A DNA stretch of 64,000 nucleotides from Eledone cirrhosa (GCA_964016885.1 OZ024741.1:115258001-115322000), one strand, 5' to 3'. Counted from the first letter of the stretch, positions 1 through 30,422 are shown. The notes: a model not told the origin generated them from the letters alone. Translations and numbers: made by a program.

Positions 1-3000
1 TGAAAACAATGAGATCGTAAATGATAAAGAAATGAATGAGAATGAACTTGCCAACTTGAAGGATGAAATTATCATCGAATGGATGAAAATGAAAGAATCT
101 GACATGGGGGAACGAGACACCCTCCCTAAGATCCAGAACTCCAAACAGAACCAAAAGATAATACACAAGACTAACATAATTATCAAAAACATTATCATCA
201 CAAACAAACTAAACGTTACTGATTTAAATCATCTCTATTATGCATCGGCTTAAGTCACCACACACTTATGTGGAGTGAAGATGAAAAAACAAAGAAATTC
301 CCACAAGAAATCTACTTGGCAAGAGAACATCAATCGTCAAATAAACCTTCTCCGATCTGACATAGAACATTTAAAAAACTATAAAGTAGGTGAACATGTT
401 AAACAAAGTAAACTTAGAAAATTGAAAAAAAAGTACAGTATAAAACCAACAAGTGACATAGACATGCTGATAGAAACAATCAAGCAAAAAGTGTCGGGCA
501 AAGCTGCTCGTATAAAGCACTTGGAAAAACGATCTAGATTCTATAAGGACAATAATATGTTCAAAACCAACCAAAGAAACTTCTACAGAAAAATTGGTAA
601 GTCAACAATAACTGCTAAATCAATACCACCCAAGGAGGAAGTGCAAGAATTCTGGGAAAAGATCTGGGCCGAAGAAAAAGTTCATAATATACATGCACCA
701 TGGATAGACAGACAAATGAAAGATACAGCTCCCCTTGAGGAACAAATACGGGAAAATATAACAGTTGAACAGTTGCGTTTGGCTCTAAGAAAAACCAGCA
801 AATGGAAATCCCCAGGAAAAGACAAAATACAAAATCTTTGGATAAATGCCTTCACAGAGTCTCATGAGCTGTTAGCCCAACTTTACAATGAAATAGTTAA
901 GGAGCCAGAAAAGATACCATCATGGCTAGTTAACGGCATTACATTCCTGCTTCCGAAGAATGATGAGACAAACAATCCCAAAAGTTACAGACCGATAACT
1001 TGCTTGATCACAATGTATAACATTTTAACATTACTCCTAACTGAATATACATATGACCACCTGATAATAAATGACCTATTTCCCATTGAGCAGAAAGGGT
1101 GTAAACGAGGCTCATATGGCTGTAAGGATCAGCTTTTGGCTAACAAATTGATACTGGAAGAGTGTCATAATAGGCACAAAAATCTATCGATTGCTTGGAT
1201 AGATTATAAAAAAGCATTCGATAGTTTGCCACACAGTTGGATTGTAAAATGTTTAGAGATTTTCATAATATCCCCCGTTGTCGGGAGGTTTTTGTCATTC
1301 AGTATGAAGACATGGAAAACGACACTCCTTTTGAATAGTGAAACAAAATCACTGGAAGCTGGAGAAGTTAATATTAATTGTGGAATTTTTCAGGGTGACT
1401 CTTTATCACCGCTTTTATTCTGCATCGCACTTATACCATTAAGTAAAATGCTCAATGAAACAAAACATGGATATAAAGTCTATGACAAAACCATTAATCA
1501 CTTGGTCTACATGGATGACCTGAAACTATTTGCAAAAAATGATGAACAATTGCAAGGGCTATTATCCACTGTGGAGCAGTTCAGTGATGACATTAAAATG
1601 GAGTTTGGACTAGATAAATGCGCCAAAGCAACGTCCACCAGAGGAAAACTGCTGAAAAGTTCAGACATTCAGGGAATGTGATAAGAGAACTTGATCAAGA
1701 GGAAACTTACAAATATCTAGGTGTTTGTGAAGGAGACGGAATCAAGCACGCGACAATGAGGGAAAGGATAATGAAGGAATGTTACCGCAGAGTAAGAGCA
1801 ATCTTAAGAACGGAATTGAATGCAAGGAATAGGATCGATGCCATAAACACGCTTGCCATACCAGTAGTAACCTACAGTTACAATGTCATCAACTGGTCAA
1901 GCCACAGATATCCGTAGGCTCGATACAAAAATTCAAAAATTCTTAACCATGCACAGAATGCATCACCCTAAGGCAGATACAGATAGAATATATCTCCCTA
2001 GGAAAGAAGGAGGACGTGGGTTAATCCAGTTAGACATTGCGTTGAAAACTGCAACAATTGGATTATCTACATATCTAAGGGAATTACATGATTGGATGAT
2101 CAAACTCGTTTTGAAATACGAAAGCATCAAAAGATCATACTCCATTACAAAAGATGCACAAAGATACAGTAATGGACTACAAATTTCAGAAGTCCCATTT
2201 ACTGCTGAAAGGGAAAACACAGAAAAAGCAAAGCAGGTAAAAGTAACTGCAAAGAAAGAACTGCTACAGAAACTGGCTAAGAAATGGCAAGAAAAGCCTC
2301 TGTATGGAAAATACCCAGAACGAGCTAACAATCCTGATGTTGACAAAACTTTAACCCATCAGTGGTTGGCATCCTCTGGACTGAAATGCGAGACTGAAGG
2401 ACTGATTATATCAGCACAAGATCAGTGTCTGCCAACAAAAAATTACCAAGCCAACATAATAAAAAATGGATGCAGCCCATTATGCCGTGTATGTAAAAAA
2501 CAACCAGAGACCATTGACCATATAATTTCAATGTGCAGTCCTATAGCTCCAACCGAATACCTAAACAGGCATGACAGAGCTGCACAATACATACATTGGA
2601 TAATGTGTAAGCATTTTGACCTGCCCCATAAAAAGAATTGGTGGGAGCATCAACCACCTCCCATACTTGAAAAAGATCACATCTAAATCTTGTGCAACTT
2701 TAGCATCGAAACAGACCGAAAAATAGATGCAAATAGACCTGATATAATATTGAAGGACTTTCAAAGGAGGGTATGCCTGCTAATTGATATGTCTGTTCCA
2801 ATAGACAAGAATGTATCTATAAAAACATTTGAAAAATTGAGCAAGTATAAGGACCTGGAGATAGAAATTGGAAAAATGTGGAAATTGAGAACTAAAACAA
2901 TACCAGAGGTTGTAGGCGCTCTAGGAATGATACCTAAGGGGTCTAATGATTACTTATCGCAAATCCCAGGAAACCCGCGTATAGAAGAAATACAAAAGAT

Positions 3001-3192
3001 AGTACTAATGGGAACTGCCCATATACTAAGGAAGATTCTGTCAATATAAGTACATCACAAGTCTAAACACTAAAGATGCATGTGTGAGTATGTATGTTCT
3101 TTCTTGAACATGGCGGACTTGTAGTGTCTTGAGGTCACTGGTTGTGACTTGGTGATAACTCGTATGAACATGAAGCAAGATAAATGCAGCTG
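1..3192 (+). mobile_element. R4/Dong-clade non-LTR retrotransposon, family A copy 1 (5' end outside window, degraded)
   Basis: RT motifs (SPGKD, YRPITCL, WIDYKKAFDS, GIFQGDSLSPLLF, YMDD), CCHC (CRVC..H..C) and RLE motif (RPD..D..K..KY); 3' UTR ends directly in (AAT)n. Confidence 0.92.
275..3049 (+). pseudogene. RT-CCHC-RLE ORF of copy A1, disrupted
   Basis: ORF pieces 275-1681, 1618-1917, 1883-2686 and 2690-3049; frameshifts near 1670 and 1905 relative to copy A2; in-frame TAA at 2684-2686. Confidence 0.9.
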
Positions 3193-3193
3193 T

Positions 3194-30200: not shown

Positions 30201-30287
30201 CCTGAATATCTGAGGCTGCAGGTAGTGGCTTGATATTCAATCCAACGGACTTTCCAGTTAACCAACATCAATGACTGAGATTCAAGG
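27259..30287 (+). mobile_element. R4/Dong family C copy 2, 5'-truncated with intact 3' end
   Basis: Begins at the equivalent of about 10746 with AAT microhomology; ends in (AAT)n. Confidence 0.93.
27313..30213 (+). CDS. RT + CCHC + restriction-like endonuclease (N-terminally truncated)
   Basis: 966-aa open frame: FMDD, CRICGEREETVAHIVSEC, RHD, NRPDLVVVD..IVDVACP..EKINRY. Confidence 0.92.
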   Translation: MNADGLGQDSVDILNLVVDELNNDSGRPMNLRFVDRKKLKETTAKVNKVIPYLEARSLHQCNNILKATANTVRKLLGIKARGNNRQERAEPWWKKRLSGQIEEMRNDIGKLESLLNGTLKNIGTKNRLEIKYKTRSKKLNIIIEELKQRIVAKSAKIRRYENRVSQYKQNRMFDNNQKMLFGQLEGKERGNDLIPGAEQAKTFWRGIWEQDVRHNAQAGWIETVQREIGEQAQQQTDLSITVETLKGQAKKLTNWKSPGPDGVQGYWIKHLTSLHPKLTAMFNDCLVSGEVPEWLTKGTTVLIMKDRIKGNDVTNFRPITCLPVMWKLLTSIVSEEIYHHLHTNNLLPDEQKGCRKKSRGTKGQLLIDKMVMGNCRRRHTDLAMGWIDYRKAFDMVPHCWITKSLEIFRVADNIRQLLGRSMGSWETELTSTGVSLGSVKIKRGIFQGDSLSPLLFVLALMPLTIMLRKVRAGYKLGRGELTINHLLFMDDLKLFGKSEKELDVLVDTVRIFSSDICMQFGIGKCGVIVMRRGRLSRSNGIQIPTGEMIKEIDSEEGYKYLGVLEADGITNKKMKELLRTEYIRRVRSVLKSHLNSRNAISAVNSRAVSIIRYSAGILRWNVAEQKEMDRKTRKLLTIYNMFHKRSDVDRLYLRRSEGGRGLISIEDCVQMEKNNLYKYVTYSKEPMLRAVLKEGTVGQGISKEEITSRRKSSLKGKSLHSTFFEKTEFRDPQTWNWLRSGDLKKATEGMLMAAQEQALKTKWLKHHIYKEEASPLCRICGEREETVAHIVSECKHLAQTHYKGWRHDVMGRVIHWHLCKVNNLPHSEKWYEHRPEAVMENSQVKVLWDFRIQTDKKLEHNRPDLVVVDKEKRSCLIVDVACPFDTRVQEKEREKINRYQDLKWEVKRIWNCHEVKVIPIVIGALGTISKGFQGWLKKIGPFTLFGTLQKACLLGTARTLRYVLNI

Positions 30288-30422
30288 AATAACAATAAGA
30301 ATAATAATAATAATAATAATAATAATAATAATAATAATAATAATAATAATAATAATAATAATAATAATAATAATAATAAGAAGAAGAAGAAGAAGAAGAA
30401 GAAGAAGAAGAAGAAGAAGAAT
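30288..30422. repeat. (AAT)n then (AAG)n: right edge of the array
   Basis: Directly visible. Confidence 0.97.

Follow-up and report, generated by a model that had tools for sequence, protein, structure and literature searches.

We analysed a 64,000-nucleotide stretch of the Eledone cirrhosa genome (G000:C2:115258001-115322000; GCA_964016885.1 OZ024741.1; genome size 2,995,841,428 bases), here called the window, whose first 30,422 nucleotides are filled by retrotransposon copies set between (AAT)n microsatellite tracts. Two unrelated retrotransposon lineages occupy (AAT)n throughout this genome, with families A and C, which carry a restriction-like endonuclease (RLE), reading along the AAT strand and families B and D, which carry an apurinic/apyrimidinic-type endonuclease (APE), reading along the ATT strand, most likely through priming at nicks in opposite strands. 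A sequence-only reading of the window had described this arrangement for a single locus; the locus stands largely as described, but the same arrangement is found at thousands of places in the genome.

The strand rule across the genome

Copies elsewhere in the genome were examined for random flanks and random orientation, and neither pattern was found. In all, 169 loci (L numbers below) were mapped. The junction tally covers 164 of them, since 5 overlap the window or border on it, and counts each set of identical contexts once. Element ends joined the following sequences:

RLE, full 5' ends: 40 AAT, 0 ATT, 6 neither
RLE, truncated 5' ends: 90 AAT, 0 ATT, 14 neither
RLE, intact 3' ends: 122 AAT, 0 ATT, 2 neither
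RLE, broken 3' ends: 0 AAT, 0 ATT, 7 neither
APE, full 5' ends: 0 AAT, 70 ATT, 0 neither
APE, truncated 5' ends: 1 AAT, 11 ATT, 7 neither
APE, intact 3' ends: 0 AAT, 58 ATT, 1 neither
APE, broken 3' ends: 0 AAT, 1 ATT, 7 neither

When 5' ends and intact 3' ends are taken together, 252 RLE ends lie on AAT and none on ATT, while 139 APE ends lie on ATT and one on AAT. Since 90 of the 104 truncated RLE 5' ends join AAT although their breakpoints are scattered, the tract cannot be explained by the 3' tail of an element.

Exact-pattern searches of the whole genome gave the same picture. The first 24 bases of D have 1,628 matches, 1,585 of which directly follow ATTATTATT; the 4 exceptions among the first 100 matches listed are all located in ATT tracts with one change. 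The exact start of B has 2,286 matches, with 2,130 directly after ATTATTATT. At full-length 5' junctions the phase between tract and element (ATT/G) is constant in 97% of D and 93% of B. On the RLE side, 30 consecutive copies of the 0.9-kb leader that precedes full-length A and C elements include 23 that follow AAT, 5 that follow AAG, 2 that follow neither and none that follows ATT. ATTATT ahead of the leader, searched with a motif present in 21 of the 30 leaders, occurs at only 6 places in the genome, and at each of the 5 that were read the tract is AAT and turns to ATT only briefly at the junction.

Several points qualify the rule. Because anchors within the elements were used to choose the loci, and adjacent elements belong to arrays, the tally is a non-random sample, and exact-pattern counts include only those copies that match the pattern. 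In addition, 20 RLE and 7 APE 5' ends lack a tract, 5 of the 30 RLE leaders follow (AAG)n, and the single APE 5' end on AAT (L055) shows a fusion-like join. As 55 of the 90 truncated RLE junctions are not simple joins to the reference but show extra bases and differences between copies, no cut phase is claimed for the RLE.

Some junctions deserve separate mention. Short AAT-to-ATT flips are present at RLE 5' junctions in L262-L267, perhaps produced when the cDNA switched strands. In L088 and L089, the tract polarity switches over a head-to-head pair of short interspersed elements (SINEs), and each element still obeys its local tract. (AAG)n is found beside RLE leaders or array edges in L117, L122, L129, L135 and L137 and at window positions 30378-30421, and the RLE leader itself begins with GAAGAAGA.

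Organization of the array in the window

The anatomy of the array was determined by self-comparison of the window, open reading frames (ORFs), Pfam domains and direct reading of the sequence, and comprises the following features:

1..3192, +, A1, Dong/R4-type by its features, with a reverse transcriptase domain (RVT_1), a frameshift and a stop; the window begins downstream of its 5' end and leader, which are found at L001:8243-10000
3193..3231, (AAT)13 tract
3232..3273, -, mini, the final 42 bases of a B/D-type element, with only the 3' hairpin and AATAAA
3274..3327, (AAT)18 tract
3328..9182, -, B, full-length APE element (Tx1-like), ORFs broken
9183..9236, (AAT)18 tract, head to head
9237..10130, +, leader E, the 0.9-kb 5' module of full-length A and C
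10131..13167, +, C1, Dong/R4-type by its features, with an N-terminal Myb-like W motif and stops; 3' end gone
13168..15693, -, D', the 5' part of a D copy, with ORF1, an internal deletion and a 193-base APE piece
15694..15744, (AAT)17 tract
15745..18407, +, A2, 5'-truncated A
18408..18446, (AAT)12-13 tract, tail to tail
18447..24473, -, D, intact APE element, with ORF1 at 24259-22163 (698 amino acids) and ORF2 at 22127-18708 (1,139 amino acids)
18458..18470, -, D 3' hairpin with a 4-bp stem and CTTGT loop, common to B, family F and the SINE
24474..24521, (AAT)16 tract
24522..27184, +, A3, duplicate of A2
27185..27258, (AAT)24 tract
27259..30299, +, C2, 5'-truncated C, frame open to 30213, with reverse transcriptase, CCHC, RHD and PD..D..K (RLE) motifs
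30300..30421, (AAT)26 followed by (AAG)15, the right array edge

This order (A1+, mini-, B-, C1+, D'-, A2+, D-, A3+, C2+) and the assignment of A and C to the RLE type and of B and D to the APE type agree with the sequence-only reading, as does the presence of AAT at intact junctions: positions 1-30422 contain nine pure AAT tracts of 12-26 units each, and no ATT tract of at least 4 units on the + strand. Three of its statements had to be adjusted. All five RLE copies do lie on the + strand, but only four of them end in AAT, because C1 lost its tail; it is broken at 13167 and there fused directly to D' sequence from the element interior, no tract intervening. Among the copies taken for duplicates, A2 and A3 qualify (2 differences in 2,663 bases), but D' and D do not (28 in 2,332), their differences being spread along the copy up to 149 bases from the 5' end. 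The array, estimated at over 30 kb, is longer still at about 35.5 kb, as a further ~5.1 kb to the left of the window (L001:4868-10000) contain another truncated B on the - strand, a short A on the + strand and the 5' part of A1.

Tracts are present at eight of the nine internal junctions and at the right array edge, as compared with a background of 7 in 763 57-base windows of non-array DNA that have at least 3 AAT or ATT units. The junction of B and C1 is particularly informative: its (AAT)18 is flanked by two 5' ends and therefore is the 3' tail of neither neighbour. A check of sequencing reads (4 of 24 runs) listed no piece covering window positions 12900-13700, a single-copy junction among thousands of copies.

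The RLE families A and C

In C2, a single ORF encodes the reverse transcriptase followed by a CCHC knuckle, an RHD motif and the PD..D..K endonuclease, and the nearest solved structures are R2 proteins. Family A has the same reverse transcriptase, CCHC and RLE motifs, interrupted by a stop. The two proteins are 40% identical, while the coding DNAs do not match. Among 119 homologues, none has an N-terminal C2H2 pattern, and 44 match an ad hoc W-motif pattern. R4 and Dong elements have a single ORF with an N-terminal Myb-like region without zinc fingers, and target TAA in most insects, molluscs and cnidarians (PMC7998251). By ORF layout, motifs and target, A and C classify as Dong/R4-type elements; the database matches include no named Dong/R4 reference, and the quick tree is unlabelled. 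A motif of the A 5' untranslated region (UTR) has 1,041 genome matches, and neither A nor C has AATAAA near the 3' tract.

The same truncation points recur at separate loci (window 27259 and L020:8057; L019 and L138), at places where the element shows AAT-like microhomology. In L092, a C fragment ends in (ATC)n, opposite to the adjoining AAT tract.

The APE families and their probable SINE partner

Elements of the Tx1 clade have a separate ORF1 with an RNA-binding region and a CCHC knuckle. In D, ORF1 contains a CCHC knuckle and ORF2 an APE, a reverse transcriptase and a zinc finger (Pfam). The best PDB match of D ORF2 is L1 ORF2 (E 1.6e-52), with the APE catalytic residues aligned in register. 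A CxxCx4Hx4C motif is present in ORF1 of both D and B; for ORF1 there was no Pfam match above the cut-off, and Atlas matches to CCHC and ZCCHC3-like clusters were at 0.91-0.93. B and D share 97% identity in ORF2, but only 53% over a 200-amino-acid core of ORF1, and their 5' UTRs are different. D is a young family: both ORFs are intact in 14 of 17 full copies and the mean divergence is 0.5%.

In a quick reverse transcriptase tree, D and P0121-P0129 form a supported separate group, and the nearest named match is an unclassified medaka protein (31%). Based on ORF layout, the combination of APE, reverse transcriptase and zinc finger and the specific target, B and D are classed as Tx1-like, the tree carrying no named Tx1 reference. 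A metagenome scan returned only distant relatives (22-34%), 3 of 80 with an (AAT)4 or (ATT)4 run, and is uninformative for close kin.

Further observations concern the same families. B/D mosaics are frequent at other loci, and B and D appear as the same ORF2 with exchanged 5' UTR and ORF1. A third APE family, F (L003:8059-10000, L007:8042-10000, L017:1-1813), is 70-86% identical to D, has its own 5' UTR and ORF1 and also lies on the ATT strand. The B 5' UTR (window ~9020-9035, - strand) contains a hairpin with the CTTGT loop of the 3' end, and D has a related hairpin. Near-identical pieces of C and D were seen in a sequencing run labelled as another organism, without visible flank.

A SINE of ~174 bases has its 3' end in common with the APE families, a hairpin with a CTTGT loop. 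This 3' end has 117,891 exact genome matches, so that the SINE has at least this number of copies. A stringent SINE/LINE (long interspersed element) pair is defined by a common 3' stem-loop with compensatory changes (PMC3747384). Such changes are present here: the loop is constant, and the stems AACC/GGTT, GGCC/GGCC and TGGC/GCCA covary among D/B, F and the SINE, although they have only 3-4 pairs. Of seven full SINE copies read, four that lie outside pure repeats have target duplications (12, 16, 18 and 19 bases), all starting with ATT, and three are ambiguous; these duplications suggest an APE nick after AAT. Within pure tracts, the length of the D target duplication is unreadable. ARAGORN predicted no tRNA gene in four loci, and the search for a tRNA-derived head gave no Rfam match. 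The main SINE probably uses the APE machinery and spreads new ATT seeds.

The shared leader of A and C

Across the genome, the motif that marks this leader matches at 1,642 places. In 30 copies, the leader runs into C in 21, into A in 7 and into neither in 2; conversely, 26 of 30 A 5' UTRs have the leader upstream, and the remaining 4 are truncated below it. Over its first 230 bases, the leader can be aligned colinearly to the 5' UTRs of D and B as far as the start codon. These alignments reach scores of 50-58, against ~25 for shuffles, and 0-1 shuffles in 100 equal the best pairs; the remaining pairs of leader and APE element are weaker, down to z 0.7, and B against D reaches only z 2.1. We favour, on balance, the view that the leader derives from a decayed Tx1-type 5' UTR, which it resembles, and was taken from a Tx1-type element by template switching.

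A less probable but serious alternative is that the leader is an old invention of the R4 side, and that it came to resemble the 5' UTRs of B and D by convergence in AT-rich promoter DNA. The homology is indeed weak, with low alignment scores and 1 of 40 controls also reaching z 6.7, and none of the 30 copies continues into a Tx1-type ORF1. A donor family nearer to the leader than D or B was looked for and not found, which likewise weighs against capture. Convergence would, on the other hand, have to account for alignments that remain colinear over ~200 bases and end on a common ATGG(C/T)TA, for the similar position of the ATG (207-229 in five of six leader variants, 208-214 in B and D), which in the leader opens a dead Thr/Pro-rich frame, and for a score of leader against D that exceeds that of B against D, which are known kin.

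Two other origins were considered and rejected: a predicted spliced junction, expected if the leader were an intron, had no matches, and the leader is not the start of a wrong-strand APE family, as 0 of 30 copies lead into an APE ORF1. Neither Rfam nor a rough descriptor of our own detected a hepatitis delta virus (HDV)-like ribozyme in the leader, both tests being insensitive. In most full-length A copies, the A leader contains a SINE 3' end with its hairpin (L001:9113-9172).

Mechanism of strand choice

Target-primed reverse transcription starts from the target strand whose sequence complements the RNA. By this logic, the AAT strand would serve as primer for B and D and the ATT strand for A and C, in line with the proposal of the sequence-only reading that the two endonucleases nick opposite strands. 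In the model that we prefer, the AAT strand would be nicked after AAT by the APE, and the ATT strand by the RLE. Because AATAAA is located 7-8 bases ahead of the tract in B, D and F and is lacking in A and C, APE transcripts probably end within the downstream tract, and the resulting (AUU)n end may pair with the nicked strand and thereby fix polarity. Each insertion would leave tract on both flanks and so permit the array to grow, and duplicates could be added by recombination or by pairing of cDNA with a resident D.

RNA-tail annealing alone could yield the same strand rule as endonuclease choice. In its extreme form, both enzymes would cut AT-rich repeats with little strand preference and the RNA 3' repeat would set site and direction by itself, which we consider unlikely. 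The position of AATAAA, which would provide the RNA with (AUU)n, is in its favour, as is the short-tailed SINE, which inserts at sites matching only 3-4 bases. Although it shares the hairpin, the SINE is far less strict than D, with 9 of 18 full 5' ends in ATT; this weighs against endonuclease choice as the sole cause, since the enzyme alone may not explain the strictness of D, to which tail pairing probably contributes. The protein hairpin loop of D (TW-LDR), equal in length to the human L1 loop and two residues below the LTX chimera loop, also suits a weak preference. The constant ATT/G phase of full-length B and D 5' junctions instead points to a set second cut, and Tx1 targeting has been credited mainly to the endonuclease (PMC4494074). 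Still further removed is the highly improbable explanation that there is no targeting, that the tracts are element tails and that the arrays arose by recombination or by misassembly across AAT runs. It could draw on the duplicated A copies in three arrays, on variants common to A1, A2 and A3 and on the observation that none of the listed contigs spans the unique junctions of the window. Yet tracts lie between 5' ends that face each other head to head, truncated 5' ends also join tracts, adjacent D copies differ by 22-68 bases as unrelated copies do, and lone copies in unique DNA (L015, L029) have tracts on both sides; moreover, a misjoin preserves the tract strand, so that the strand rule cannot arise from misjoins.

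Array growth and local duplication

Arrays grow mostly through separate insertions, with some duplication. In an array on genomic sequence C1 (C1:55.42-55.46 Mb; not the element copy of that name), five D copies show 32-68 pairwise base differences. Three arrays, one of them that of the window, have a D with identical truncated A copies on either side (2, 0 and 0 differences), and the flanked D differs throughout from the neighbouring D in two of the three; in L019, the two are identical over the 5' 1.7 kb. An imperfect tract of 34 bases at C1:22.04 Mb recurs as an exact copy that extends to the 5' junction of the resident D. These duplications fit a process in which a new D cDNA pairs with a resident D at its 5' end and copies the intervening DNA, or an unequal exchange in the tract. 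A1, A2 and A3 have in common three variants, one of them a stop, that are absent from 28 other A copies, which points to local conversion.

Relation to known systems

Insertion of Dong into TAA and pairs of families on opposite strands, such as TRAS and SART, are already known, and the RLE half described here is of a known type; the system is set apart by an APE half that occupies the opposite strand, by arrays that are mixed and polarised, by the leader common to A and C and by the link to a SINE. Dong, DongAg and the snail DongBg target TAA, while Kibi and Koshi target other microsatellites (PMC3812793), and the Bombyx Dong 5' junction was amplified with a primer in the sense of the TAA strand and has a 5' HDV-like ribozyme (PMC3774820). 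Families A and C resemble Bombyx Dong, DongAg, DongBg and an ostracod Dong in having a single ORF, a reverse transcriptase, an RLE and a (TAA)n target, into which they insert with their sense on the TAA strand as Bombyx Dong does. They differ from Dong in being two 40%-identical families with one 0.9-kb leader, in which weak tests revealed no ribozyme, and in occupying tracts jointly with an APE lineage.

The Tx1 microsatellite families, Kibi on (TC)n, Koshi on (TTC)n, crocodilian elements on (TTCC)n/(TTTC)n and Tx1-Mar with SINEU, share with B and D two ORFs, APE and reverse transcriptase, a strict repeat and a SINE partner (PMC4494074). In contrast to these, B and D target (ATT)n, which is already used by an RLE lineage, and have thousands of full-length copies. 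TRAS and SART likewise place two families on one repeat, Bombyx (TTAGG)n, in opposite orientation and in arrays (PMC10088271), but both belong to the R1 clade and reside at telomeres, whereas here RLE and APE elements form interstitial arrays genome-wide.

R1 (APE) and R2 (RLE) share the 28S rDNA as a multicopy target. They use distinct unique sites in a transcribed gene, different from a 3-base repeat that is renewed by each insertion. Unrelated LINEs with a common 5' module, ascribed to template switching, are known from ingi/L1Tc, Nimb/RTE heads and LP-SINEs (PMC4758252); these modules have ~70-77 bases, and the leader described here is ~0.9 kb long and was probably handed over by an APE lineage to an RLE lineage with the same target. 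In Octopus vulgaris, Dong-R4 and L1-Tx1 elements were recently active, and the words target and nested are absent from the accessible text of that account (PMC13282606). The literature that we covered, to which Repbase, Dfam, Kojima and Fujiwara 2004 and paper supplements do not belong, contains no Tx1-type family specific for ATT/AAT and no sharing of tracts with Dong.

Significance

The elements may, tentatively, be viewed as a community living on one 3-base repeat, in which an APE LINE and its SINE sow and lengthen (ATT)n, two RLE families use the other strand, and the RLE lineage has captured an APE promoter. If so, the captured promoter would let the RLE families be transcribed without a surrounding host gene, and a common target would drive the exchange of modules between clades that split early in eukaryote history; capture of the leader would mean that an RLE lineage had obtained a promoter from an APE lineage. 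Two enzyme classes appear to read one repeat from opposite sides, and the intact young D provides a test for the roles of the endonuclease and the RNA tail. A strictly (ATT)n-specific APE element would also add to the set of site-specific integrases. At 5-6 kb per element, the ~3,900 full-length B/D starts and ~1,640 RLE leaders amount to tens of megabases in polarised arrays, whose head-to-head promoters and tail-to-tail read-through matter for annotation, assembly and the use of AAT markers.

Other features of the window

Beyond the array, the window contains Penelope-like copies at 46766-49996, 31825-34216 and 58859-60774, at whose ends long AAT tracts are absent. Reverse transcriptase and GIY-YIG domains are encoded in 46766-48562, and the other two calls rest on a weak reverse transcriptase match or on position. 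Positions 54596-56565 are occupied by (AT)n arrays of 340 and 1,330 bases.

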